A DNA stretch of 64,000 bases from an uncultured Candidatus Saccharibacteria bacterium (GTDB lineage: Bacteria; Patescibacteriota; Minisyncoccia; Phycocordibacterales; UBA5272), in contig CAZNZQ010000001.1 in NCBI GenBank assembly GCA_964577675.1, positions 5,875 through 69,874 on the forward strand, in the 5' to 3' direction. Positions 17,538-36,978 of the stretch are shown one piece after another. The translations under genes and the position numbers were made by a program. The notes under the pieces were generated by a model, which saw nothing but the letters and a program-made list of their open reading frames with translations, was not told the DNA's origin and did no database searches. Numbering within the stretch: the stretch's first letter is position 1; each line of letters starts with the position of its first letter.

Positions 17538-20057
17538 TTATTCTTCGGTTGTAGTTGCGGTAACCGGCAAGTTGAGGCTGCTGATAGTATCTTTATCTAG
17601 AATACTATCTAGTTCAAACTTTCGCCTAAGAGCTTCTGATAGGCTGCCGTCATCGTCAGAGAATACCTCTCCTGTTTGTTCACTATAAAATGCAAAGTCC
17701 TGCGCTCCAACTATAACTTCCCATCGAACACCGTCAAAGACAACACGGCCTCTTTCTCCAATTGATGTGTCATGTGCCGGAACCTCTCTCACTTGAATAG
17801 ATTTGTCGGTCAAATTAAAAGCATACACTCTTGACCTATCTTCAGAGAGCCAAAATAAGTGCGTATCCTTAATTCCAATCTGCATATTTTTATCTATTGT
17901 AATAGATGTTGAGGATCCAGCTTCTATCTTATACTCCCCTCCATTCTGGAGATCATACAACCACAACTCTTCCTTGCCATCTTTCTCCACCTGAACAATG
18001 ACAGCATTAAGGAGTGCGCCTCTAATTCTTTTAATCAAGTCTTTTGCAAAATCAGGCAAGCGATCCTCTTTCGTTTCTTCTGTCTTATCTTCCTTCTCTT
18101 CTTTTTTTATTTCTTGGACGATTTCGCGAGGAGAAAGTAAGGACCATGATTCTTTCTTCTCCAGCTTAAACCACTTATTCTTCGGTGTAACTGGAATGAT
18201 CACTGTGCTGCTTGTTGCAGTAGAAGTAGCTGTGATATCTGTACTCGCGGCAACTGAGCTTGTAGCTACTTCTGTCGTTGAAGTTGCGGTTACTAACGAG
18301 GATACCTCTTCTGTGGAGGTAGCCAAACTATTAGTTGTTGTCGCTACAGTTGTACTTGCGATATCTAAGGTACTGGTTGCTTGCGACACCTCTTCCTCAA
18401 GATACATATACCATATCTCTTCTTCATTGGTTTCGTTATTGATAATAGTTACTAGTCGCACACCATCAATCATCTCATCGTTAAGTATCGTATCTCTCGT
18501 AAAGTCTGGATGAGTATACTCTAGAGTAGAATCGTAAAGCACTTCTACCTTAACTGCATCGAGATATGTCACAGGCGTCTCACGTTCTAGGCTTTTAACA
18601 GTTACTTTTACTTGTAGCTGAGTCATATCTGCCCAGGTAGACGAGGCAGAAAGCGGGATTTCGAATGTTCTATATTTCATAGAGATCTCGTTGAGTTCAC
18701 CAAGAGAAGTCCAAGTAACTCCATCGAATGTGTACAGTATTTCTAAGAAGTTATTCTGTGACTCTTCTGGCGCTTGAGACAATAGCTCAGATGATGTTGA
18801 AACCATTTCTGTGGTTGATGCTAGACTTGAACTAGCTATAGAGAAGAGGTCGTCTGTGGAGGAAGCCGTTGTTGTGGCTGACAAAGAAACAATACTAGAG
18901 GTAGAGTTCTCCGGTGAAGCTTGTGACGAAGTGGATACAACCAAGGAGAGACCTTCGTCTGCCGTTTGAGTTACAGGCGTAGCTGTTTGTTCCTCTGTTC
19001 CTGGCTCGTCTATCTCTTGCGTCTCACTAGAGATTGAAGTAGTAAAAGATTCTTCGGGTGTAATGGCTACGAGCGGAGCCTCTTCCTCCATAGCCTGAAC
19101 AGGAGTGGCTACCTCCTCACTGCTCTCCTGCGCGAAAACAGTGGTAATAAAAAGTGAACCGATTCCCTGAAGAAGGTCCCGCATAAAAGATGTAGGGGCT
19201 TCAGGTGGTACTGAACTATCTCCTGCGGGCGTGACCTCTGCAGGGATTGACACTTCTTGGGATGCTGGCATGGTTTCTATCACAGGCGGTGGCACTACTA
19301 CCGTGTCTGTAACACTCTCAGACGGTGAGTTGTTAAAAATATTCCCCAGCGTTTCAGTTACCGCTCCTACAATAATCTCCGCGAATGATTGATTATCGTT
19401 TACTGATTGTGTGGTCGAAGCCTCAAGTGCCTCATTGGCAGTTTGAACAGGCGGAGATGAGGAGGCGGATGTTGAAGTTGACACAGTCTCTGTAGAGGAA
19501 GCTGAGAGTAATTCTTCAGAAGTTGAGGATGTTATCAGGGTTGTACTTGCGACAGCATTTATTACCTCAGTTGTTGTAGCTAGTTCACCAATAGTAATTT
19601 CTTCTTTATTAGTTATCGCAAGAGAAACAATTATCTTCTTAGGGACAGTTGCGTCATTAAATGTACCGTCGAAATTACCGCAATAGATATCAGCTGCTGT
19701 ATTCTTGTCTAGAATGGCTGAGTTCTTGTCGTTAAATTGTGAAGGGTCTGCATTAGATGTTGTCTCTCCTTCTTTCTCTGCATTACGAGGGTTGCTCCAA
19801 CCACCTAAACACGTCTCTGGATAAAAAGTTACAATATCAGCCTTACCACGTGGTGAGATAAAGCTGCCAACCACAAGAACAAGGACAAGCGAAGACAGTG
19901 CCATCATCATGTGCTTCTTCTGAAGAGCTCTATCGACTTGCTCTGAATACGAGAAGACCAAGTCATTCAGCGACTTGCTAACATTGTCGATATGAGACCC
20001 GACTTCGGGAAAATTCTTAGAAATGATTCTTGGTTTTCTTAGTTGGAATTTGCCCAT
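17538..20057 (-). CDS. single-pass membrane protein with very long S/T/A/E-rich low-complexity ectodomain
   Basis: 839 aa with an N-terminal TM (MMMALSSLVLVLVVGSF) and several hundred residues of S/T-rich low complexity. It has no recognisable catalytic motifs. Confidence 0.5.
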   Translation of the reverse strand: MGKFQLRKPRIISKNFPEVGSHIDNVSKSLNDLVFSYSEQVDRALQKKHMMMALSSLVLVLVVGSFISPRGKADIVTFYPETCLGGWSNPRNAEKEGETTSNADPSQFNDKNSAILDKNTAADIYCGNFDGTFNDATVPKKIIVSLAITNKEEITIGELATTTEVINAVASTTLITSSTSEELLSASSTETVSTSTSASSSPPVQTANEALEASTTQSVNDNQSFAEIIVGAVTETLGNIFNNSPSESVTDTVVVPPPVIETMPASQEVSIPAEVTPAGDSSVPPEAPTSFMRDLLQGIGSLFITTVFAQESSEEVATPVQAMEEEAPLVAITPEESFTTSISSETQEIDEPGTEEQTATPVTQTADEGLSLVVSTSSQASPENSTSSIVSLSATTTASSTDDLFSIASSSLASTTEMVSTSSELLSQAPEESQNNFLEILYTFDGVTWTSLGELNEISMKYRTFEIPLSASSTWADMTQLQVKVTVKSLERETPVTYLDAVKVEVLYDSTLEYTHPDFTRDTILNDEMIDGVRLVTIINNETNEEEIWYMYLEEEVSQATSTLDIASTTVATTTNSLATSTEEVSSLVTATSTTEVATSSVAASTDITATSTATSSTVIIPVTPKNKWFKLEKKESWSLLSPREIVQEIKKEEKEDKTEETKEDRLPDFAKDLIKRIRGALLNAVIVQVEKDGKEELWLYDLQNGGEYKIEAGSSTSITIDKNMQIGIKDTHLFWLSEDRSRVYAFNLTDKSIQVREVPAHDTSIGERGRVVFDGVRWEVIVGAQDFAFYSEQTGEVFSDDDGSLSEALRRKFELDSILDKDTISSLNLPVTATTTEE

Positions 20058-20130
20058 AGTACTTCTTTAGTATAGCAACGAAAAGTACTTAAAAATGAAG
20101 GGCAATCCACACAAAAGACTTTTACTACTT

Positions 20131-20232
20131 CTAAACTTCAAGAATCTCGCCAGACTGGTGTGCCCATAACTTAGCGTATAGCCCTTCCTGTTTGATGAGG
20201 TCTTCATGTGTACCATCTTGCACAATCTTTCC
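20131..20232 (-). pseudogene. 3'-terminal remnant of an ABC exporter ATP-binding protein gene
   Basis: The last ~33 codons of ORF 20131..20331 read GKIVQDGTHEDLIKQEGLYAKLWAHQ, the conserved C-terminus of MsbA-type ABC ATPases. The upstream part of the ORF has no ABC similarity and there are no Walker motifs anywhere nearby. Confidence 0.5.
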
Positions 20233-20262
20233 CTTGGTTTCCTTTCTCGAAAGATTTGACTT

Positions 20263-20292
20263 ATCGGCGCGCAATGCGCCGATTTTTATTTT
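20263..20292 (+). terminator. rho-independent terminator-like hairpin at the left edge of the island
   Basis: ATCGGCGC-gcaat-GCGCCGAT followed by TTTTTATTTT. Confidence 0.5.
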
Positions 20293-20528
20293 CAAAAACG
20301 GGGTCAGGCATCGTTTTAGAACCTGACTCAACTTGGCTGCGATGTAAGGTCTAGTACGTACTGTGTACGTGTGTGTAAGGGGATTTGGGCTAGTTCGAAT
20401 CTCAAACCCTAAGGGGTTTAGGTCGTTATTTACAGTTTATGAAATACCGTATTTGCTGTGATTTTACTGTGATTTCCGTTAATGAATCTGATATTAAAAA
20501 AGCCACAAGTTTTGTATACTTGTGGCAT

Positions 20529-20936
20529 ATGGCAAACCCAGGATCTCTTAAACCTTTCAAGAAAGGTCATGACCCAAGACGTAATGTTAAAGGGAGAATT
20601 TCTAAACCTCTATCTGAGTCTGGAGCTTTGAAAAAGTATCTTCTAAAGCACCTACATAAGAAAGTTACTGTTAATGGTGTACAAATGAGGATGATGGATC
20701 TCGTAGCGGAAAGACTCGTTGATGATGCTGTCAGAGGTAGTATTTCAGCATTAAAAATATTACTTGATAGAACAGAGGGTAAAGTAATGACACAAGCCCA
20801 GATGGCAAAAGTACGAGATAAAGAAGAACGAAAGTTGTCAGCAGCAGAAGACAAAGAGATGCTTCGAGTTATGAGACTTTTTGCAACCGAAGAAGAATTA
20901 AAGAAACTGGACGCTCAGGACTCGACCAAATCCTAA
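20529..20936 (+). CDS. phage-associated protein with DUF5681-like N-terminus
   Basis: MANPGSLKPFKKGHDPRRNVKGRISKP resembles the FKKGQSGNPxGRPKG motif of DUF5681 phage proteins. The start was chosen at the internal Met of ORF 20439..20936. Confidence 0.35.
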   Translation: MANPGSLKPFKKGHDPRRNVKGRISKPLSESGALKKYLLKHLHKKVTVNGVQMRMMDLVAERLVDDAVRGSISALKILLDRTEGKVMTQAQMAKVRDKEERKLSAAEDKEMLRVMRLFATEEELKKLDAQDSTKS

Positions 20937-21005
20937 GGTGTCTGTACTGTAGCTTACATAAAGGCATTTGTGTAGCCGAAGTTATCCACTCAAGTTACTC
21001 TAGGT

Positions 21006-21419
21006 CTATCTCGTTCCAAAGTGGGTATGTTGAACATAGTTGAACTCACCCTTATCTCCACCAACAATTCTTCCATCAATATTTTCCATATAGTACCCTA
21101 AAGTTTTATTTGTAAATAAATCTACAATACTTTTTTGAGTTATTCCCTGACCAACTGATATAGAGCGATACAAACAATCATTCGTATTTTTATCAAAAAT
21201 ATAGTCAGACGATGAGACAATGTCATTAGATGTATTTTGCTTGTTATATGTCTGATCTTCTTTTTCTCTTTTAGATCCTAATTCCAAGCACTGTTTCTGT
21301 AATGATATTTTGAGAGTCCGTTCATTTTGTTCAGGAATATATTTGAGAAGATAATATACAACTGAGACAGCGATAACCAAACATGACAAAGCAACTATAT
21401 GTTGAGTATTTTTATTCAT
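21006..21419 (-). CDS. hypothetical membrane-anchored protein (island)
   Basis: 137 aa with an N-terminal TM helix (IVALSCLVIAVSVVYYLL) and no recognisable domain. Confidence 0.35.
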   Translation of the reverse strand: MNKNTQHIVALSCLVIAVSVVYYLLKYIPEQNERTLKISLQKQCLELGSKREKEDQTYNKQNTSNDIVSSSDYIFDKNTNDCLYRSISVGQGITQKSIVDLFTNKTLGYYMENIDGRIVGGDKGEFNYVQHTHFGTR

Positions 21420-21422
21420 AAG

Positions 21423-21564
21423 TGTGTGATAGGCCTTATAAAGTGTGGTAGCAAAAATCCCACCACGTGGTGAGGTCTTGCGACCTCCATACCCGTTTCC
21501 AGGTACGGCCTATCACAGCAAAATCCACATGATGGGGTTTTTACTGTGATAGGACATTGTTCGC
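21423..21564. promoter_or_regulatory. palindrome-rich divergent control region (operator-like TGTGATAGG repeats)
   Basis: GTGTGATAGGCC at 21423, the inverse GGCCTATCACAG at 21509 and CTGTGATAGG at 21553; the last two form a 10-bp-stem inverted repeat around a 25-nt spacer. A perfect 12-bp palindrome CACCACGTGGTG sits at 21458, with GAGGTCttgcGACCTC next to it. Confidence 0.45.
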
Positions 21565-21710
21565 CATGCCGCTGATTACTCAAATGGTTTAGGCTACTTG
21601 TATTGATTTGTAAGAACATTATACCTCGTTTTTGAGGTCTTTGGTACTATAGCTTACTAATAAAATTTTGTGTAGAGAAATTATTTTATAATTAGTTTGT
21701 ATTTTTTACA

Positions 21711-21719
21711 TGCTATAAT
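21711..21719 (+). promoter_or_regulatory. extended -10 promoter (TGcTATAAT) giving a leaderless transcript
   Basis: TGCTATAAT ends 6 nt before the ATG at 21726, so the predicted TSS coincides with the start codon and there is no SD sequence. Confidence 0.4.
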
Positions 21720-21725
21720 CAAATT

Positions 21726-21905
21726 ATGTCAAAAACTATTCGCCAAAAAAGAGGAGACACTCTTGTCGGAACAATAGAGAAACAATACAATGTAGATCTT
21801 GGACATCGTTCTGATAAGAAATTAGCAACTGTTTTAAAAGAAACAGGTGCTCCTTCTTTGTCGAAACTACTTAAGATGGCAGACTCTTCGAAAAAGAAGA
21901 AATAA
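21726..21905 (+). CDS. small basic protein (59 aa), first gene of recombinase operon; candidate regulator/RDF
   Basis: MSKTIRQKRGDTLVGTIEKQYNVDLGHRSDKKLATVLKETGAPSLSKLLKMADSSKKKK. It is below the 60-aa cutoff of the ORF track. It ends 6 nt before the next ORF. Confidence 0.35.
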   Translation: MSKTIRQKRGDTLVGTIEKQYNVDLGHRSDKKLATVLKETGAPSLSKLLKMADSSKKKK

Positions 21906-21911
21906 GATGGT

Positions 21912-22436
21912 ATGAGCGAAGATAGTTTTGATTTTATTGATTATCAAAATTTGAGGAACAATATAATTGACTCTATTAATTATATTGCAACACTTTGGAT
22001 ACAAGCTGAAAGTATTGAAAAAGCACATCACCAAGAACTATACAGGACAATTATTTTTTATAACGCATCTATAGTAGAAGCATTATTACTGTTCTTTTGT
22101 ACTAAAAAGTCAATTTTAATTACTCAAGATAAATATACGGAGCCGTATAAATTACCTGACGGTTTTCAAAAAACAGGCGGAGAAACTTACATAGCTATAA
22201 AAAAGAAAGTTAAAAAAACATATGCCGAAATTTCATTTGCAGATCTACTTGGTGCTACTGAAGATTTCTTGGGGAAGGCTTTATTTAAAAAGATTACAGA
22301 TTTGAAAGATCTCCGTAATACTGTACATCTAGCAAAGAGTAGGACACTAATTAAGCAGGAAGTCGTTAAAGGTTCGAGTGATACTGTTTTTAAATTAGTA
22401 AAAAAAATTCAAAAAGAAGTTAGGGTTATCAACTAG
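21912..22436 (+). CDS. hypothetical protein (island)
   Basis: 174 aa, AT-rich codon usage, in an operon between the small ORF and the recombinase. No motif could be assigned; the RNTVH stretch is not a canonical HEPN Rx4-6H. Confidence 0.4.
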   Translation: MSEDSFDFIDYQNLRNNIIDSINYIATLWIQAESIEKAHHQELYRTIIFYNASIVEALLLFFCTKKSILITQDKYTEPYKLPDGFQKTGGETYIAIKKKVKKTYAEISFADLLGATEDFLGKALFKKITDLKDLRNTVHLAKSRTLIKQEVVKGSSDTVFKLVKKIQKEVRVIN

Positions 22437-22461
22437 CTATATTGCGTGTTTCGGGTATGTT

Positions 22462-23751
22462 GTGTGTTGTATGGAAAACATAACAGAACCAATAAGATAT
22501 TGCCTCTACGCCCGTAAGTCAAGCGAAGCTGAGGAAAGACAAGCACTTTCAATAGATTCTCAGATAAAAGAGATGCTTTCACTGGCAAGTAGAGACGGGC
22601 TTGAAATTGTAGATATTTACCGAGAATCCCACTCAGCAAAGGATTGTGGACAAAGACCGGTCTATAACCAGCTTTTAACCGATATACGAGCCGGTAAGTT
22701 CAATGGAGTAGTTGTTTGGCATCCAGACAGACTTGCACGTAATGCAGGCGACCTTGGGGTAATTGTAGACCTTTTAGACCAAAAGAAGCTGGTGGAGATA
22801 CGAACACATAGTCAGAGATTTACCAATAATCCAAATGAGAAGTTCTTGCTGATGATTCTAGGGTCACAAGCAAAGCTAGAGAATGATAATAAGAGTATCA
22901 ATGTGAAGCGTGGACTTAAGATGAGGTGTGAGATGGGGTTTTGGCCAAGCGGAGCACCCACTGGATACATCAACTCACCGAATCGAGATGAGAAGGGTGT
23001 GGTCTATATAGATCCTGCGCGCGCGCATGTAATGAAAGATATGTTTGTGAAAGTTGGTCATGGAGGGTGGAGTGGAAGGAAGCTCTATAAATGGCTAAAA
23101 GATATAAAGTTCACCACCAGGTATGGCAAACCTCTTAGCTTAAGTAATATTTATAAAATACTTTCCAATCACTTCTACTATGGAATGTTTGAATACCCAA
23201 AAGGTAGCGGTAAGTGGTATCAAGGTAACTACGAGCCAATCATTTCCAAAGATTTATTTACTGATGTTCAGAACCAGCTACATCAAGAAGTAAGAGTGAA
23301 AGGAAAGAATAAAGAGTTTACATTCACAAAGATGTTTACTTGTGGAGCATGTGGCTCGGGTGTCACTGCGCAAGAGAAGTATAAAAACCTAAAAGACGGA
23401 ACGATTAATAAGTACATCTATTATGGATGTACACGAGCAAAAGATATAAACTGCAAGGAGGGTTATATAGAGGAAAGAGTACTATTAAGTGAGTTGCTGA
23501 AAGTGTTAGATCAAATAGACTTAGATAAATCAGGACTAAAGAAAAAGCTTGAAAAGGAAATTGAGAGGCATAAAGTTTTTCACTCTAAAATCATGGGTAA
23601 AGAAGAAGAAAACTATGAAGTAAAAGACGTAGACATACGCAATTATGCTAAGTATGTCCTAGAGAAAGGATCGGTGTTTGAGAAGAGAGATTTGTTGGGA
23701 ACTTTTAAGAGTGGAGTGAGTCTAAAAGATAAATATATTACGTTAACCTAA
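22462..23751 (+). CDS. large serine recombinase (resolvase/integrase family)
   Basis: The N-terminal resolvase catalytic region contains YARKSS (the Ser nucleophile) and VVWHPDRLAR. A recombinase domain and a C-terminal Cys-rich zinc ribbon (CGACGSG...YYGCTRAKDINC) plus a coiled coil follow. Confidence 0.8.
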   Translation: MCCMENITEPIRYCLYARKSSEAEERQALSIDSQIKEMLSLASRDGLEIVDIYRESHSAKDCGQRPVYNQLLTDIRAGKFNGVVVWHPDRLARNAGDLGVIVDLLDQKKLVEIRTHSQRFTNNPNEKFLLMILGSQAKLENDNKSINVKRGLKMRCEMGFWPSGAPTGYINSPNRDEKGVVYIDPARAHVMKDMFVKVGHGGWSGRKLYKWLKDIKFTTRYGKPLSLSNIYKILSNHFYYGMFEYPKGSGKWYQGNYEPIISKDLFTDVQNQLHQEVRVKGKNKEFTFTKMFTCGACGSGVTAQEKYKNLKDGTINKYIYYGCTRAKDINCKEGYIEERVLLSELLKVLDQIDLDKSGLKKKLEKEIERHKVFHSKIMGKEEENYEVKDVDIRNYAKYVLEKGSVFEKRDLLGTFKSGVSLKDKYITLT

Positions 23752-23757
23752 TTTATT

Positions 23758-24492
23758 TTAAACTATTTCTACCCACGAAGAGTCATAGCCAATGGTTTCT
23801 AGCAATGTGTCAGTATTAAGGGATGGCGGTTTCTTTATGAAAAACTTTAATCGATTTTCAGGGATATTTTCTTTTATTGTAAATTGAGAACCATGTCTTT
23901 GCCAGGTAAACTTATGTTCTTGAGTTTCCTTATCGAAACCTTCTAGGTTTCCATTTTTATTCTTTTTCCAAAAAAATCTATCTTCTGGATACCTAACTGT
24001 TTCGTACTCAAATACACTAAATGGGATTTTCTCATCTTCAAAATCCGTTGGCTTAAGAAGCACAACGGTTCTTATCTCTTTAAATTTATCCCTAAGTCCT
24101 TCTACTCTTCCATTCCAAATTTGAAGGACCTGGGCTCCAATACCATCATCTGTATCAGCAATTGTATCAAAAGAATACTCAGGATTATTTCTACCAGATA
24201 TAAGTCGTACTGAGGTCACAGTATGAGGGCTGCCTGCTTTTACAGTTTTTGCCCCCCAAGCGAAACTCCCTTTAATTACATCATCTAATCCAACATTAGA
24301 AGGTTTCCATTCCGCGTCTATTGCTTTTGCAAAAATTCTTTCCCACTCTGAACCTTCCAGTGCAGGATGTCTACTGGTGGCAAGCATGAAAACTAATTCC
24401 ATACCAAGAATACTCGTAAATGATTTTGGGAAATCATTTAATTGGTATGGTGGCACAGCCTTTTGCACTGTTTTTAGTTTTGGTTCTGACAT
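23758..24492 (-). CDS. putative type II restriction endonuclease (partner of the m5C methyltransferase)
   Basis: 244 aa, sitting 7 nt downstream of and co-directional with the MTase. It has no similarity I can name. The assignment is by genomic context only. Confidence 0.35.
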   Translation of the reverse strand: MSEPKLKTVQKAVPPYQLNDFPKSFTSILGMELVFMLATSRHPALEGSEWERIFAKAIDAEWKPSNVGLDDVIKGSFAWGAKTVKAGSPHTVTSVRLISGRNNPEYSFDTIADTDDGIGAQVLQIWNGRVEGLRDKFKEIRTVVLLKPTDFEDEKIPFSVFEYETVRYPEDRFFWKKNKNGNLEGFDKETQEHKFTWQRHGSQFTIKENIPENRLKFFIKKPPSLNTDTLLETIGYDSSWVEIV

Positions 24493-24498
24493 AATATC

Positions 24499-25491
24499 TT
24501 ATTTTACTCCAATTTTAGATTTTACGCTTCTTTTTTGCGCGGGAATGGGCTTTTTTGACAATGCTTCTATTATTGCACTTGCCACGGCTTCCATTTGAGG
24601 AACTACCACTGCGTTTCCGGCTTGTTTTCGTGCTTGTGAATCAGGCACTATTATTCTGTAATCATCCGGGAACCCTTGTAGTCTAAACATCTCTCTCGGA
24701 GTAAGTCTTCTTTCTCCATTCACAACAAGATAATTATAAGATCCGCTTGCTCTCAGTGCGCAAGAGTAGGACTTCATACTAATGTTACCTGACATATTCT
24801 CATGCCACACAGAAGGATAGGCAGGGGCTGTCTTATTCTGTTCCTTCAGTTTTCTTTGTAACTTTAATTTAAAATAATTACTTAAGAAATGCTTAGAATC
24901 TATTTCTTTATTATCTTCTAAAATGTCTTCAAGCTTCTTAGCTCTTCTCTTTCCTTTGGTGGGAAATTCGAAAGGATGATTATCTCTGAAACCTACTATC
25001 ATTATTCGCTCTCTTTTCTGAGGCACACCAAAATCTAAACCGTTCAAAACCTTGTAGTGAACAAAATAACCTAACTTTTCAAGACTTGAAATTATTGTAT
25101 TAAAGGTTCTACCATGATCATGGGTTGTAAGGTTCTTAACATTCTCAAGGAACACTACTTTAGGTTTTTTATCTTTTATGATTCTTTCCACTTCAAAAAA
25201 CAAAGTTCCCCGTGTATCTGCAAAACCTTTCCTGTTTCCTGCAATACTAAAAGCTTGGCAAGGGAACCCTCCAGTTAAAATGTCATGGTCGGGGATTTCT
25301 TTTGTGGTTATTTTGGTTATATCTCCGTGAGGTTTATCACCAAAGTAGTTTTCATACATTATTTGAGCTGATTCGTCCCATTCAGAACCAAATACGCAAG
25401 TTGCCCCAGCTTTTTCAAAGCCGATTCTAATTCCGCCAATTCCAGCAAATAAATCTATAAAAGTTAATTTCTTCTCTGTATTTTTTTTCAT
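24499..25491 (-). CDS. DNA (cytosine-5)-methyltransferase, M.HhaI-like
   Basis: Motif I FIDLFAGIGG, motif IV GGFPCQAFSIAG, motif VI VVFLENVKN and motif VIII QKRERI. The N-terminal ~190 aa align closely by eye with my recollection of M.HhaI. The start was taken at MKKNTEKK. Confidence 0.85.
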   Translation of the reverse strand: MKKNTEKKLTFIDLFAGIGGIRIGFEKAGATCVFGSEWDESAQIMYENYFGDKPHGDITKITTKEIPDHDILTGGFPCQAFSIAGNRKGFADTRGTLFFEVERIIKDKKPKVVFLENVKNLTTHDHGRTFNTIISSLEKLGYFVHYKVLNGLDFGVPQKRERIMIVGFRDNHPFEFPTKGKRRAKKLEDILEDNKEIDSKHFLSNYFKLKLQRKLKEQNKTAPAYPSVWHENMSGNISMKSYSCALRASGSYNYLVVNGERRLTPREMFRLQGFPDDYRIIVPDSQARKQAGNAVVVPQMEAVASAIIEALSKKPIPAQKRSVKSKIGVK

Positions 25492-25585
25492 TACTCTAAT
25501 AAGTATACACCAAAACGGGTGCCTAAATTTTAGGCTCTCCACAGGTGGAGATTTTGAACAAATTAGAATAGTATTGTTTCAAAAG

Positions 25586-26878
25586 CTATTGAGTCTCCGT
25601 CTTATCTTCTAGCGATTTTAACTCAGAAAACTTAGCTGCCATTGTAGGGTTACCTTTAACAAGCTTCTTAACAGTTAACTCTTCTGCTTTGTCATTAGCT
25701 AGACGCAAGTTGTTCTCTGAAGAGATAAGATCTTTTTTTGTTTTTTCGAGCTGTTTGATGGATTCATCAATGTGATCTATGGCAGTTTTAAACTTTTCAG
25801 ATGCGAGGCGATAATTGCGATTAAAACCATCTCGGAATTCAGTCAAATCATTTTCAAAATTAGTAACATCAATGTTTTGATTTTTAACAATTGCAAGCTC
25901 AGCTTTATACTCAAGTGATTTGAGGGAAGCGTTACGAAGCAAAGTTATTATTGGAATAAAGAATTGTGGGCGAATAACATACATCTTTGAATGACGATAA
26001 GACACGTCAACTATACCTCCATTGTAAAGATCACTCTCCGGCTCAAGTAGTGAAACTAAAACTGCATACTCACATTTCTTTTCATCTCGATCTTTATCAA
26101 GTTCTTTAAGAAAATCCTCATTCTTTTTCTTTGTGGCAGTTTCGTCTCCTTCGTTTTTCATTTCAAACATAATAGAAATGATCTCATTGCCATTCTGATC
26201 AGTTTCTCGATATATATAATCTCCTTTACTGCCAGTTTTAGAATCATTATCTTTTTCAAAATATGCATTTTGAAAAGCTGTAGCACGAAGCTTGTTGAAT
26301 TCGTTTTCACAGTGTTGCTCTAGTGTCTCACCAATCATTTTTGTTGAGAGTTTAAGCTTCATATCTTTACGAAGAGCAATCTCCTCATCTTTCATTTTTA
26401 TGATGTCGTCTTTGGTTTTTAGTTCGCTAGAAAACTTCTCTTTTAGAGATGTCTCGAGTAACTGTTTTTCAACATCTTTACTCTTAAGTTCACCAGCAAG
26501 CTCGTCACGTTCTTTCTCGATTTTATTTACAGCTTCATTAATAGCCAGTTTCTTCTCGGTTTCAGTGGATGCAATTTTTGCTTTTAGTTCAGATATCTCA
26601 AGTTCGCTCTTTGATTGATGTAGAGCTACTTCACGCTCCTTTTCTGCTTTAAGCTTTGCTATTTCTGTATCTTTTTGAGAAAGATCATCTTTTATCTTAT
26701 TTTTAATCTGTTCTTCGGCAAGCTTCACAGCATTCTCTTTATCAGCCTTAAAAAGCCTTTCTCTCTGGAGCAGCTCTTCTTCAAACTGATGATCTCTTAC
26801 TTGCTTGAGAATGTCAGCAAAACCAGCTTCATCAATTTTAAAAGCTTTATGACAGTTAGGGCAGATAATCTCGTTCAT
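25586..26878 (-). CDS. DUF2130-like protein: N-terminal C4 zinc ribbon, long coiled coil, C-terminal RmuC/PD-(D/E)xK-like region
   Basis: CPNCHKAF...; roughly 200 aa of heptad-rich E/K sequence; then GDYIY...[13 protein letters not shown] (a candidate D...ExK nuclease motif). Confidence 0.45.
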
Positions 26879-26951
26879 TGTTATATTCTAACATTTATCA
26901 AGATGTAATCTAAATCACTAAGTAAAATCAAAATATATAGATAGTAATTGT

Positions 26952-27266
26952 TTACGTCCTTTGATATTTTAGTCGTCCATATAAAGCTTCACTGTAATAG
27001 TTAGCAAAATAAAACCATTGACCGACAAAAGCTCCGCAATCAGAACATGTATTGGCTAAATAGGTTTCATTTGCTGTTTTGCTAGTTACTTTTTTAATGA
27101 GAACTCCGTTTTTCTCAGCAAGCTCTATTTCTTTTTGGTTAAATTTCTCAGGCCCATAATCCATATTTCCGTTGTCGTCCCCAATAAGAGCAATGAGCAT
27201 TTCTTTACCACACTGCCAACAAGGTGCTGATATGATCATCATTTTTTCTTGTTGTTTATTATTCAT
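26952..27266 (-). CDS. small zinc-finger protein (two CxxC pairs)
   Basis: 104 aa containing CWQCGKEM...CSDCGAF. Confidence 0.4.
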   Translation of the reverse strand: MNNKQQEKMMIISAPCWQCGKEMLIALIGDDNGNMDYGPEKFNQKEIELAEKNGVLIKKVTSKTANETYLANTCSDCGAFVGQWFYFANYYSEALYGRLKYQRT

Positions 27267-27299
27267 GCAATAATATTACACTAAACAAACTACATGCAC

Positions 27300-27643
27300 C
27301 ATGTCATTTAGATCTACTAAGTATTGACCCGTTTAGGTCCTTCGATACTTATTTACAAAGCTGGGGCGTTGAGACTGTCACTGTGTATAGGTCTAGTACG
27401 AGTCCTAACAGGGTGATGGGTTTTGGTCTAGAAAATTCTAAAACCACCTATTGAAAAATATAGGTCTTTAGGTCCTTCGATACTTATTGCTTCTGCTGGG
27501 GCGTTGAGAATGTCACCGGCTTTAGGTCTGGTACTAAGTGACCCCATTGAGACTAGCTTTTTTATTTTTGTGTCAATAGTTGATCTTAAAAAACTATTGA
27601 AAAATATACGAAGTGTTTAGGTCCTTCGATACTTATTGATTCT
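27300..27643. repeat. three tandem degenerate ~140-bp repeats containing the tRNA-Gln 3' flank sequence
   Basis: TTTAGGTCCTTCGATACTTATT..CTGCTGGGG recurs at 27332, 27467 and 27615. Copies 2 and 3 also share CTATTGAAAAATATA upstream. The third copy runs directly into the real tRNA-Gln 3' end. Confidence 0.7.
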
Positions 27644-27714
27644 GCTGGGGTATAAGGACTCGAACCTCAATTAACGGTGCCAGAAACCGTTGTCCTACCA
27701 TTAGACGATACCCC
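27644..27714 (-). tRNA. tRNA-Gln (anticodon CUG)
   Basis: Reverse complement TGGGGTATCGTCTAATGGTAGGACAACGGTTTCTGGCACCGTTAATTGAGGTTCGAGTCCTTATACCCCAG folds as a cloverleaf. It has a U1-A72 acceptor, anticodon stem ACGGT/ACCGT, loop TTCTGGC and a TTCGAGT T-loop, and closely resembles E. coli tRNA-Gln. CCA is not encoded. Confidence 0.75.
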
Positions 27715-27756
27715 AATTAATATTTTGTGGCTCACTACCTCGTTCCTGCCCTTAAT

Positions 27757-27952
27757 CTCTTATTGATACTTGAGATTATTTTGCTCGAAATCTTGCTAGA
27801 TTTACGAGCCCTCGAAGCCGAGCTTCTCGGCCCAATTGTTATTCCTACTTCTCAAACTTTTATTTGCCTCGACTCGGTTATTGATTCTCGAGATTACTTT
27901 GTTCAAAACTTTGCTAAGCTTTGAACCCTTCGAGGCCGAGCCTCGGCGGCCC
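27757..27952 (+). repeat. two tandem ~100-bp imperfect repeats each ending in a GC-rich palindrome
   Basis: Unit 1 (27757-27845) and unit 2 (27860-27952) are about 75% identical. Each carries GCCGAGCTTCTCGGC or GCCGAGCCTCGGC followed by a T-rich tract. Confidence 0.55.
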
Positions 27953-28238
27953 ATTTTATATTTCTCACTATCTTCCGCTCTTCGGGCCGTTGCGACTATG
28001 CTTCCGGCACTGCGATTTCAAAAGATTGATTACTATCTAAGAAATCGGGAGCCCATTTCCTGCTGACAACATTTTGTCGCTGAACAGCTGTGCAAATTTC
28101 TAAATTTTTGAACTTTGCCACAGAAACGTATCCGAAATTCTACCACAATGTTGGACTTTTTTCTAGGCTGACCTGATGAGGCACTCGATAAGTGAGTCTA
28201 GCTTAAAAAGCAATTATGTAGTATTATGCAGTACTCAA

Positions 28239-33452: not shown

Positions 33453-34340
33453 CTAACTTCCTAACAGTACCACCTTTTCTGCTTCAATAAACCCTTCTAT
33501 CTCACCTTTTTCTAAAACAGCTTCTACATTACTGGTCTCATAGTCAGTTCTGTGATCCTTTACCATCTTGTACGGGTGAAGTACGTATGAACGTATCTGA
33601 TTCCCCCACTCTATCTCAGTGGTCTTACTAATCTGCCTCCCCTCTACTTCGGCCTGGCGCTTCTCTTCTTCTAATTTAAAAAGTTTGGATTGCAAAATTT
33701 CTAATGCCTTCTGCTTGTTCTGCTCCTGCTGACGTTCAGTCGCCACATGCACTGCGATATTAGTCGGTATATGAATAACGCGCACAGCAGTCTCTCTCTT
33801 GTTAACGTTTTGACCACCGGGACCGCTCGACTTAGACATCTCTATACGTATCTCGTCCGGCGACAATGTCTTCCTCTCTACTTCTGGGATGATTGGGAGC
33901 ACTTCGACTAGAGCAAAAGAAGTGTGCCGCTTTGCCTGTGCATTAAACGGTGAAATTCTAACAAGGCGATGCACACCGGACTCATGTTTGAGATTACCGT
34001 AGACCATCTTACCCTCTATTTCGAGCGTGATATTGCGATACCCGCCATGGTCGTTCTTATTATCATGAAGCGTGTTATAACGATAACTATTTCTATCGAA
34101 GTACTTCTGATACATCATTAGGAGTATACGAGCGAAATCTTCACTATCATCCCCTCCTGCACCAGCCAAGATGGAGAAAATTGCTCCACCTTTATCGAGT
34201 GCTCCCACACCCTCCTTTTTATCCTTTAATTCTTTAATTTTTTTGATGACAGACTGCGCTTTCTCTTTATCAGTCCAAAAATCAACCTCATTCATCGAGG
34301 CTTCAAGCTCTGCTATTTCGAGATCCAGGTTTTCTCCCAT
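33453..34340 (-). CDS. prfB: peptide chain release factor 2
   Basis: GGQ motif (SGPGGQNVNK) and the RF2-specific SPF motif (RISPFNAQAKRHTSF). The start was taken at MGENLDLEI. No CUU-UGA-C frameshift site is present. Confidence 0.75.
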   Translation of the reverse strand: MGENLDLEIAELEASMNEVDFWTDKEKAQSVIKKIKELKDKKEGVGALDKGGAIFSILAGAGGDDSEDFARILLMMYQKYFDRNSYRYNTLHDNKNDHGGYRNITLEIEGKMVYGNLKHESGVHRLVRISPFNAQAKRHTSFALVEVLPIIPEVERKTLSPDEIRIEMSKSSGPGGQNVNKRETAVRVIHIPTNIAVHVATERQQEQNKQKALEILQSKLFKLEEEKRQAEVEGRQISKTTEIEWGNQIRSYVLHPYKMVKDHRTDYETSNVEAVLEKGEIEGFIEAEKVVLLGS

Positions 34341-34393
34341 TAGTGGACAGTATACCAAATCTCCACCACCTCGTGGTATGCTATAAAGCAATT

Positions 34394-34816
34394 ATGAAAA
34401 TCGGATTCACAGCAGGTGCGTTTGACCTCTGTCATGCAGGGCACATGCTCATGTTTAAAGAATGTAAAGAATACTGCGATTACCTTATTGTGGGCTTACA
34501 CACTGATCCGACAATTGACCGACCAGAAAAAAATAAGCCAGTGCAAGACATAGAAGAAAGAAAAGCTCAACTGGAGGCCGTGAGGTACATCGATAAGATA
34601 GTGCTTTACGACACAGAAAAAGATTTATACGATATTTTACAAAAAAACGAACTAGGGATTAATATTAGAATCATAGGCGCAGACTGGAAAGGTAAACCTT
34701 TTACTGGCCATGATCTTCCCCTTGATACAGTTTTCAATACCAGAGACCACGGGTACTCATCATCTAACCTAAGAAAGAGAATCTACGAGGCAGAGAAAAA
34801 GAAATATGAGCCATAG
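34394..34816 (+). CDS. cytidylyltransferase (TagD / glycerol-3-phosphate cytidylyltransferase-like)
   Basis: GAFDLCHAGH (HxGH), VRYIDKIV and GADWKGK, at ~140 aa like TagD. The start was taken at MKIGF. Confidence 0.6.
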   Translation: MKIGFTAGAFDLCHAGHMLMFKECKEYCDYLIVGLHTDPTIDRPEKNKPVQDIEERKAQLEAVRYIDKIVLYDTEKDLYDILQKNELGINIRIIGADWKGKPFTGHDLPLDTVFNTRDHGYSSSNLRKRIYEAEKKKYEP

Positions 34817-34857
34817 CTATAGAAAAATTCTGTTAGGAAAGCGTCTCATTTTGATAT

Positions 34858-35993: not shown

Positions 35994-36054
35994 GTAGCGT
36001 GTAGCGTGTAGCGTGTAGCGTGTAGCGTGTAGCGTGTAGCGTGTAGCGTGTAGG
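35994..36054. repeat. heptanucleotide microsatellite (GTAGCGT)x8.7
   Basis: Eight perfect copies from 35994 to 36049 plus a partial copy. It begins 6 nt upstream of the rarA start codon on the transcribed strand and replaces any SD sequence. Confidence 0.9.
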
Positions 36055-36234
36055 AGATAGTTTACGCTTTTGGCTGGAAGACGTAAATAGAACGGAAATG
36101 CTAAGAATCGGTCACAAGAGCACTCGCTTCGCTCAAGAAGCTATTGCTTGTTCCTAGAACCGAACTTGCTAACTCGCCTATTCGACTCTCGACATAAAGT
36201 CACTCAAGTGACTTTTTCTTTGGATCACTGCGTG

Positions 36235-36490
36235 AGCCAAGAGCGGGAATCGAACCCGCGACCTCTTCCTTCGTTTACACCCCATCTTCATTCTTATACA
36301 TAGGGACTAGACTGTATCTTTATCCACTAAGGATACCCTTGTCAGTCGTTCGGGCGAATACTCGCCACGGTCTTAGCTTATTGTCAGCCGTTAACCGTTA
36401 TTCGGGATTCACAATACAGTTACCTGTATTGTGGGCAGGAATCTTTTACGACCCACCATGGAAGTGCTCTACCAACTGAGCTATCTTGGC
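36235..36490 (-). tRNA. tRNA-Thr (anticodon GGU) interrupted by a 183-nt intron between positions 36 and 37
   Basis: Exon 1 is GCCAAGATAGCTCAGTTGGTAGAGCACTTCCATGGT and exon 2 is AAGGAAGAGGTCGCGGGTTCGATTCCCGCTCTTGGCT. Joined, they give a perfect 73-nt cloverleaf with a 7-bp acceptor stem, D-arm GCTC/GAGC, anticodon stem CTTCC/GGAAG, loop AUGGUAA and T-arm GCGGG-TTCGATT-CCCGC. Confidence 0.7.
36272..36454 (-). ncRNA. putative group I self-splicing intron in the tRNA-Thr anticodon loop
   Basis: The 5' exon ends in U and the intron ends in G. The intron contains AAGAUACAGUCUAGUCC, resembling the group I J8/7-P7 (S) element, and GACUG upstream as a P7 partner. It has a P8-like hairpin UAUCC-uuagu-GGAUA and a 10-bp hairpin capped by a GUAA tetraloop. 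Confidence 0.5.
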
Positions 36491-36978
36491 TTTTTAGAAA
36501 CAATCTAATAAGCTTACCTTATTTTCTGCAGTTTTTCAATTTCATTAATGAGCACATCCCTCATTTTTTTATTATTATAATAAACTGTCAAAACTCCATG
36601 TTCAATCTTCCTTTTATACGAACCAGATCCTCGAGAAGGCGTGACAACGGTCTTCATGAACTGACTACTGGAAACTTTTAGTTACCGTTTCCAAAAACTC
36701 AATACATCCTCGACCTCGGTGGTATTAAAAACTTGAATACCGAATCTCATGTCTTTTTTATCCACTTCAAAAAAAGTTTCCAAAAACAAGACGAAAGTGG
36801 TGACTAACTTTGGTTCCGTATTGCCTAGCCGAACTTAATACTTATTGGCTTTTGTGCCTTCTCCCCAATACAGGCCAAGGCCAAGGCCAAAAAGAATAGC
36901 TTCTTCATTAGAACTTGGCCCCCCTAAACAGAAATGGGTCTCCGCCAGGGTTATTTTTTAAGTAAACCCTGTAACGAG

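Follow-up and report, generated by a model that had tools for sequence, protein, structure and literature searches.

Group I introns reportedly interrupt the tRNA-Ile(CAU) gene of Azoarcus and the tRNA-Arg(CCU) gene of alpha-proteobacteria. In both cases, the intron is inserted after U36 and the anticodon constitutes the exon half of P1, an arrangement combined with a compact P1–P9 architecture of about 200 nt (about 205 nt in Azoarcus), a GNRA tetraloop in L2 and the absence of an ORF. All these features are shared by the tRNA-Thr(GGU) introns considered here. However, the Azoarcus and alpha-proteobacterial introns belong to subgroup IC3 and are well detected by the Rfam group I model (Intron_gpI, RF00028), which is not the case for the Thr introns, and their P7 reads GACUA/UAGUC instead of GACUG/CAGUC, while the P3 helix of the Thr introns comprises only 3–4 bp. 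The cyanobacterial and plastid tRNA-Leu(UAA) intron is likewise a self-splicing group I intron located in the anticodon loop, and its splicing is said to be helped by the exons pairing within the anticodon stem. Unlike the Thr introns, it occupies site 34/35, belongs to subgroup IC3, measures about 250 nt and is detected by RF00028.

Within Patescibacteria, introns of subgroup IA are found in tRNA-Asn(GUU) as well as tRNA-Asp(GUC), also in the anticodon loop and mostly without homing endonuclease genes, as in the Thr introns, but they differ from these in their site (35/36), in their length (about 230–260 nt in two sequences) and in being detected by RF00028. One Asn and one Asp intron of this 35/36 class self-splice in vitro (Nakagawa et al. 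2026, mSystems, PMC13011429; preprint July 2025). Table 1 of the same paper lists introns at 36/37 of tRNA-Thr(GGU) in three complete Patescibacteria genomes, which were missed by RF00028, found by the gpI_bact_tRNA.cm model of tFind, and assigned to the IA clade of Patescibacteria introns, in which their branch is long. According to its authors, Castelle et al. 2018 (Nat Rev Microbiol) had named them 'divergent group I introns', and tRNAscan-SE finds only two tRNA-Thr genes, instead of the usual three, in two of the genomes that carry them, which suggests that these two have no GGU copy besides the split gene. Therefore, a group I intron in tRNA-Thr of Patescibacteria is already described in the literature, contrary to the original prediction, which had been aware of none in tRNA-Thr(GGU).

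The window, i.e., the whole 64-kb stretch of DNA analysed here, represents a further genome beyond these three, and its exact MgsA sequence is absent from the protein collection searched. Its intron agrees with the published Thr introns in phylum, tRNA, anticodon and insertion site, is comparable in length and predicted group I structure, and likewise escapes RF00028 and, in part, ARAGORN. The family described below and the published Thr introns are presumably one and the same, an identification based on the common tRNA, site, phylum and tool behaviour. The new elements of the present work are the large size of the family, a covariation-backed structure that includes P3 and P9.0, intron sizes down to 170 nt, and conserved synteny.

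The split tRNA-Thr(GGU) gene and the fold of its precursor

The tRNA-Thr(GGU) gene is located on the minus strand of the window (36490–36235) and specifies a precursor of 256 nt, which reads GCCAAGAUAGCUCAGUUGGUAGAGCACUUCCAUGGU, 183 nt of insertion, and AAGGAAGAGGUCGCGGGUUCGAUUCCCGCUCUUGGCU in the order 36490 to 36235. When introns are allowed, ARAGORN reports a tRNA-Thr(ggt) gene with the coordinates c[36234,36490] and an intron of 183 nt at position 36-37, and the joined exons (36 + 37 nt) form a canonical cloverleaf with the acceptor stem GCCAAGA/UCUUGGC and the anticodon loop AUGGUAA. The 183-nt insertion at 36/37, originally proposed with no strand given, and the 73-nt cloverleaf assembled from the two halves are thus borne out, and the U at the end of the 5' exon (U36) and the G at the end of the insertion (36272) are both where they had been placed. 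In default mode, ARAGORN misses the split gene when applied to the whole 64-kb window, and together with Rfam at gathering thresholds it calls only tRNA-Gln (27644–27715) and a LOOT RNA. Rfam at gathering thresholds gave no group I match in the whole window, and a scan of 36100–36620 at E ≤ 10 returned no RF00028 match either, but only a T-arm fragment against the tmRNA model. The features of the locus are collected in Table 1; regarding the promoter match included there, the number of matches to the consensus in this region is not above that expected from shuffled sequence.

Two further sequence features accompany the gene. A perfect 7-nt tandem repeat (GTAGCGT × 8.6, 35994–36053) is situated between the start codon of MgsA (35988) and the 3' end of tRNA-Thr, and a palindromic hairpin (AAAGTCAC-TCAA-GTGACTTT, 36196–36215) is found downstream of the tRNA 3' end, at a distance of about 20 nt. 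This hairpin was scored by the scan as a plus-strand terminator, whereas the tRNA is encoded on the minus strand.

Table 1. Features of the split tRNA-Thr(GGU) gene and of its intron (positions in the window).
Feature	Position	Strand	Basis
Sigma-70-like promoter match (TTGACA-17-AAAAAT), some 70 nt upstream of the tRNA 5' end	36563-36591	-	consensus scan only
5' exon, tRNA positions 1-36, with the anticodon G34 G35 U36 at its end	36455-36490	-	ARAGORN -i and sequence
183-nt group I intron at tRNA site 36/37, lacking an ORF	36272-36454	-	ARAGORN, fold, alignment, profile
P1 5' strand, G34 G35 U36 + G1 G2 G3; 5' splice site after U36	36452-36457	-	minimum-energy fold, covariation
P1 3' strand / internal guide CCUGCC; G pairs with U36, CC with G35 and G34	36434-36439	-	fold, covariation
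P2, 10-bp hairpin, GUAA loop L2 at 36420-36423	36410-36433	-	fold, covariation
P3 5' strand CCCG, followed by J3/4 AAUA	36403-36406	-	pairs with 36336-36341
P4 (ACGGUU/GACCGU) enclosing P5 (GGCU/AGCU)	36367-36398	-	fold; P5 covaries
P6 hairpin GGCGA-GUAU-UCGCC	36353-36366	-	fold, covariation
J6/7 CGAAC + P7 5' strand GACUG (R element; presumed G-binding G-C pair)	36343-36352	-	invariant, 67 sequences
P3 3' strand C-AA-GGG, AA bulged, pseudoknot with P7	36336-36341	-	family counts
P8 hairpin UAUCC-UUAGU-GGAUA	36321-36335	-	fold, covariation
J8/7 AAGAUA + P7 3' strand CAGUC (S element)	36310-36320	-	near-invariant; RF00028 alignment of family locus L113
P9.0 5' strand GU, pairs with AC at 36273-36274 before the terminal G	36306-36307	-	covariation
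P9 hairpin (CCCUAU ... AUGGGG)	36280-36305	-	fold, covariation
P9.0 3' strand AC (36274-36273) + terminal omega-G (36272); 3' splice site G/A37	36272-36274	-	family ends
3' exon, tRNA positions 37-73 (A37 A38 GGAAG ...), CCA not encoded	36235-36271	-	ARAGORN -i

The precursor folds with an energy of -91.6 kcal/mol, compared with -68.3 ± 4.4 kcal/mol for 200 shuffled sequences, none of which equalled it (z = -5.3), so its stability is beyond chance. Its minimum-energy structure pairs GGU/GGG across the 5' splice site with CCUGCC, forms the 10-bp GUAA hairpin, and places ACGGUU/GACCGU around GGCU/AGCU; the same structure contains the GGCGA/UCGCC hairpin, GACUG/CAGUC around UAUCC/GGAUA, and a 3' hairpin. 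The sequence elements on which the group I reading was originally founded, namely AAGAUACAGUCUAGUCC, the upstream GACUG, a hairpin between them (UAUCC/GGAUA) and a 10-bp hairpin capped by GUAA, are all present. With the helices established by comparison (see below), the hallmarks of a group I intron found at this locus include a P1 with a U.G pair, an omega-G, a P3–P9 core with its pseudoknot, the R and S elements, and P9.0.

The intron family and its conserved structure

Homologues were sought in metagenome contigs with the pattern TAGCTCAGTTGGTAGAGC-N7-TGGTB, which describes the conserved 5' half of the gene for tRNA-Thr(GGU) and, after it, a nucleotide other than A37. The resulting figures are lower bounds: at least 120 matches were obtained, about 100 of those listed being members of the family, and at least 84 complete split genes with at least 79 distinct introns of 170–297 nt could be reconstructed. 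All 79 distinct introns among the matches listed interrupt tRNA-Thr(GGU) at 36/37, end in G and are followed by AA. Using nhmmer, the same intron was recovered in about 100 loci among the matches listed and once in the window. Moreover, an independent profile, for which 66 metagenomic relatives but not the window were used, gave a single match in the 64-kb window, at 36452–36272 on the minus strand (135 bits, E = 4.5e-41). Apparent cases of family genes with a missing 3' half turned out to be contig ends. On the other hand, nhmmer with the Thr-family profile detected no similarity to two published Patescibacteria tRNA-Asn introns of the 35/36 class, other than the two known to self-splice, a result in line with the designation 'divergent'.

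The shortest introns among the matches listed (L141 and L185) measure 170 nt, less than the 205 nt or so of the Azoarcus intron, and the expectation that the 183-nt intron would rank among the smallest of its class is therefore a fair one. At the other end of the range, the longest among the matches listed are those of L131 (1993–2306, minus strand, 297 nt) and L101 (602–872, plus strand, 254 nt), whose extra length comes mainly from expansions in the P5/P6 region and in P9 and not from ORFs; neither ORF-sized insertions nor homing endonucleases were found in the family introns among the matches listed.

An alignment of 67 sequences (MAFFT, 266 columns) displays the near-invariant blocks GAAUCCCGAAUAACGGUUAA, AAGACCGUGGC, GCCCGAACGACUGACAAGGG and AAGAUACAGUCUAG, separated by variable hairpins. 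RNAalifold predicted 48 pairs in this alignment, 31 of them with compensatory changes, and P3 and P9.0 were added to the structure by hand before the pairs were counted. In the resulting structure, 96.5% of the cells are paired, compared with 35–42% in slid controls and 78.6% in shuffled alignments; 34 of 54 pairs show changes on both sides, against a shuffled mean of 27.0; and the covariation score amounts to 0.489, against 0.143 after shuffling (a value of 0.489 was reached in 0 of 500 shuffles) and 0.06–0.10 in the slid controls.

The distribution of these changes follows the helices of both the tRNA and the intron. Covariation extends to all five pairs of the anticodon stem, all nine counted pairs of P2, all four of P8, five of six in P9, four of five in P6 and two of three in P5, and the P2 hairpin is closed by a GNRA loop in 66 of 67 sequences. 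In P1, the pairs G34-C and G35-C are invariant, as is the GCC of the guide, and the U36.G pair marks the splice site in 66 of 67 sequences, while the next two pairs, which extend the helix, covary (G.U/G-C/U-A and G-C/A-U). P9.0 consists of 2 bp, in which the two nucleotides that follow 'CUA' pair with the two that precede the terminal G, in the combinations GC/GC, GU/AC, AU/AU and AC/GU; both pairs covary, the one occurring as G-C (51), A-U (14) and U-A (2), the other as C-G (40), U-A (20) and U-G (3). P4 and P7 are complementary yet invariant and, since they never vary, covariation is silent on them. J6/7 shares the invariance of P7, and CGAACGACUGACA is nearly invariant. A G-C pair closes P7 on the J6/7 side; ahead of it, an A-U pair may form with a bulged C, and all these positions are likewise invariant and show no covariation.

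P3 is unusually short and consists of CCC(G) paired with (C)AAGGG, i.e., only 3–4 bp. Over all loci listed, its triplets read CCC/GGG in 84 cases, CUC/GAG in three and CCU/AGG in three, with a single mismatch, and these two sets of compensatory changes support the P3/P7 pseudoknot. An extension of P3 by the nucleotides flanking CCC/GGG showed no covariation in the alignment. Similarly, no conserved P10, in which the 3' exon would pair with the guide sequence, was found in the 67 sequences, where a single potential pair, U-A37, occurs in 44.

The gathering score of RF00028 is 50 bits, a value reached neither by the window intron nor by the only two loci that matched when 20 family loci were scanned permissively, L113 (21.4 bits) and L112 (19.4 bits). 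Both matches are weak and far below this threshold, but they are full-length, have the expected orientation and coincide exactly with the intron. In the alignment of L113, P1, P2, J8/7-P7 and P9 of the model fall where they were assigned in this analysis, the S element AAGAUACAGUC being aligned to the consensus AAGAUAUAGUC; in addition, the R element GACUG resembles the consensus AGACUA. However, the P4 of the family is forced into the 7-bp P3 of the model and the R element is deleted. As this alignment reads, the short P3 of the family plausibly explains the misalignment and contributes to the failure of the model. The original prediction regarded the lack of an RF00028 match combined with the lack of any alternative fold as refuting: the first is indeed what the window intron shows, whereas the fold and the comparative evidence are strong. 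Altogether, the fold, the covariation in about 80–100 homologues and the weak RF00028 matches on two members support the proposed group I intron.

A pattern scan of viral contigs returned six matches, none of which belonged to the tRNA-Thr intron family, and blastn of the locus against phage genomes gave no match. In one of these contigs (L086, IMGVR_UViG_3300031992_000063, 2503–2668), ARAGORN -i calls a tRNA-Thr(GGU) with a 91-nt insertion at 36/37 within a phage tRNA array; this insertion ends in U instead of G, is unrelated to the family, and is too short for a group I intron. In three further viral contigs (L082, L083 and L084), the 5' half of tRNA-Thr(GGU) stands alone and unrelated sequence comes after it; they look like what is left of the attachment sites used by elements inserting into tRNA-Thr.

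Genomic neighbourhood and inheritance

The window belongs to a Patescibacteria chromosome, in which the neighbours of the split gene have chromosomal housekeeping functions and include MgsA/RarA, RF2, TrmD, an FtsE-like ABC ATPase and two-component systems. When MgsA was compared with 185,579 species genomes, most of the best matches came from Patescibacteria/CPR metagenome-assembled genomes (66–74% identity, and 91% in one case), and some from Acidobacteriota. None of 80 genome loci related through MgsA contains the intron (0/80). Three of them (L040, L059 and L077) carry an intron-less tRNA-Thr(GGU), which in L059 has the same arrangement as in the window, directly upstream of MgsA and sharing its strand, and spans the insertion point with the sequence ...CAUGGUAAGGA... 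Among the metagenomic matches listed, the closest intron is that of L154 (73% identity), whose TrmD is 88% identical, and RF2 is found within about 0.5–3 kb of the split gene in at least 21 loci, with FtsE following in at least 12. Since the intron occurs in conserved synteny across relatives, it has probably been inherited vertically and is probably not actively mobile.

The RF2 ORF of the window (33453–34391; the region 34392–34857 was also inspected) encodes only 312 aa and matches just the C-terminal half of the PCRF profile (positions 97–194 of 194), and neither an upstream frame for the N-terminal segment nor a CUUUGA prfB frameshift site was obvious near it. Its relatives in the family loci align over the same length as this ORF.

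Elsewhere in the window, a block of low GC content (20000–28000; 0.36 versus about 0.43 in the remainder) contains a LOOT RNA (RF03000, 21472–21595 on the minus strand, 83.5 bits), a DUF5681 ORF, DUF2130, a large serine recombinase (22462–23751) and a C5 DNA methylase (24499–25542), and ends at tRNA-Gln(CUG) (27644–27715). This block looks like an integrated mobile element adjoining a tRNA gene, with an orphan LOOT RNA inside.

Proposed splicing of the intron and its significance

On the basis of these comparisons, the locus very probably contains a group I intron whose splicing leaves a functional tRNA-Thr(GGU), a reading that also covers a reaction assisted by proteins. The mature tRNA would arise only once the 183-nt intron has been removed from the primary transcript. 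Following the established group I pathway, an exogenous guanosine bound at the G-C pair of P7 would attack the phosphodiester bond after U36. In turn, the terminal G of the intron (36272), positioned by P9.0, would take the place of this guanosine in the G site, and the 3'-OH of U36 would then attack the bond between this G and A37, thereby joining the two exons and setting the intron free. As P10 is essentially lacking, the alignment of the exons is probably ensured by the anticodon stem (27–31/39–43), which would hold them together in a manner comparable to that reported for the Anabaena pre-tRNA.

The failure of the standard annotation tools (default ARAGORN and Rfam) to call a tRNA at this locus speaks for a dead pseudogene, a tRNA gene that a decaying insertion has disrupted. 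Nevertheless, such an origin is scarcely conceivable in view of the perfect cloverleaf formed by the joined exons, the full covariation of the anticodon stem, and the intron core, which is under strong purifying selection with compensatory changes; furthermore, the number of tRNA-Thr genes in two of the published genomes suggests that the split gene is their only GGU copy. The pattern of substitutions in the family thus demonstrates selection on both the tRNA and the predicted ribozyme core. Equally hard to credit is an intervening sequence of a kind other than group I, removed by a protein endonuclease and a ligase, as in the archaeal bulge-helix-bulge (BHB) type, or by some other pathway. 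Protein-spliced tRNA introns are also located in the anticodon loop, but the site used here is 36/37 and not the canonical 37/38, the host is a bacterium, and the conserved elements match the group I consensus. The BHB intron was rejected for its wrong site and for the position of the 5' junction within a continuous helix, which leaves no bulge-helix-bulge.

A third alternative accepts the group I origin and denies the catalytic autonomy, such that the insertion would be excised in vivo only with the help of a protein cofactor or chaperone. The pared-down core, with a P3 of 3–4 bp, no P10 and no peripheral domains, speaks for this possibility, as do the very low RF00028 scores within the family and the absence of any on the window intron; besides, no published splicing assay was found for tRNA-Thr introns, the introns tested being only Asn and Asp ones. 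However, the hallmarks of the catalytic core are all conserved (U.G, terminal G, P9.0, J8/7, J6/7, P7, and an L2 of the GNRA type for tertiary docking), efficient self-splicing is known from compact tRNA introns of comparable size, such as that of Azoarcus, and no candidate cofactor gene is linked to the split tRNA-Thr locus. Dependence on such a factor is consequently regarded as unlikely, if less so than the two preceding alternatives.

Beyond the spliced group I intron itself, a more far-reaching proposal is that the tRNA-Thr(GGU) introns constitute a distinct, ultra-compact group I lineage, locked to the GGU anticodon and vertically inherited across Patescibacteria, which would be characterized by a length of 170–200 nt, a P3 of 3–4 bp, and the lack of P10 and of peripheral domains. 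This proposal is tentative and at present rather doubtful.

The practical consequences of this locus concern genome annotation, since the split tRNA gene is missed by standard tRNA and Rfam annotation. Carrier genomes thus seem to be devoid of tRNA-Thr(GGU), which distorts completeness estimates of CPR genomes. The roughly 100 family loci among the matches listed, compared with three published cases, are enough to seed a dedicated covariance model. If self-splicing were confirmed, the tRNA-Thr(GGU) introns would count among the smallest self-splicing group I introns that occur in nature, and the members of 170 nt would be attractive as minimal group I ribozymes. Moreover, if the proposed ultra-compact lineage holds true, the maturation of the only tRNA-Thr(GGU) could depend on GTP and Mg, which might provide a form of growth control at the RNA level in organisms with few regulators.
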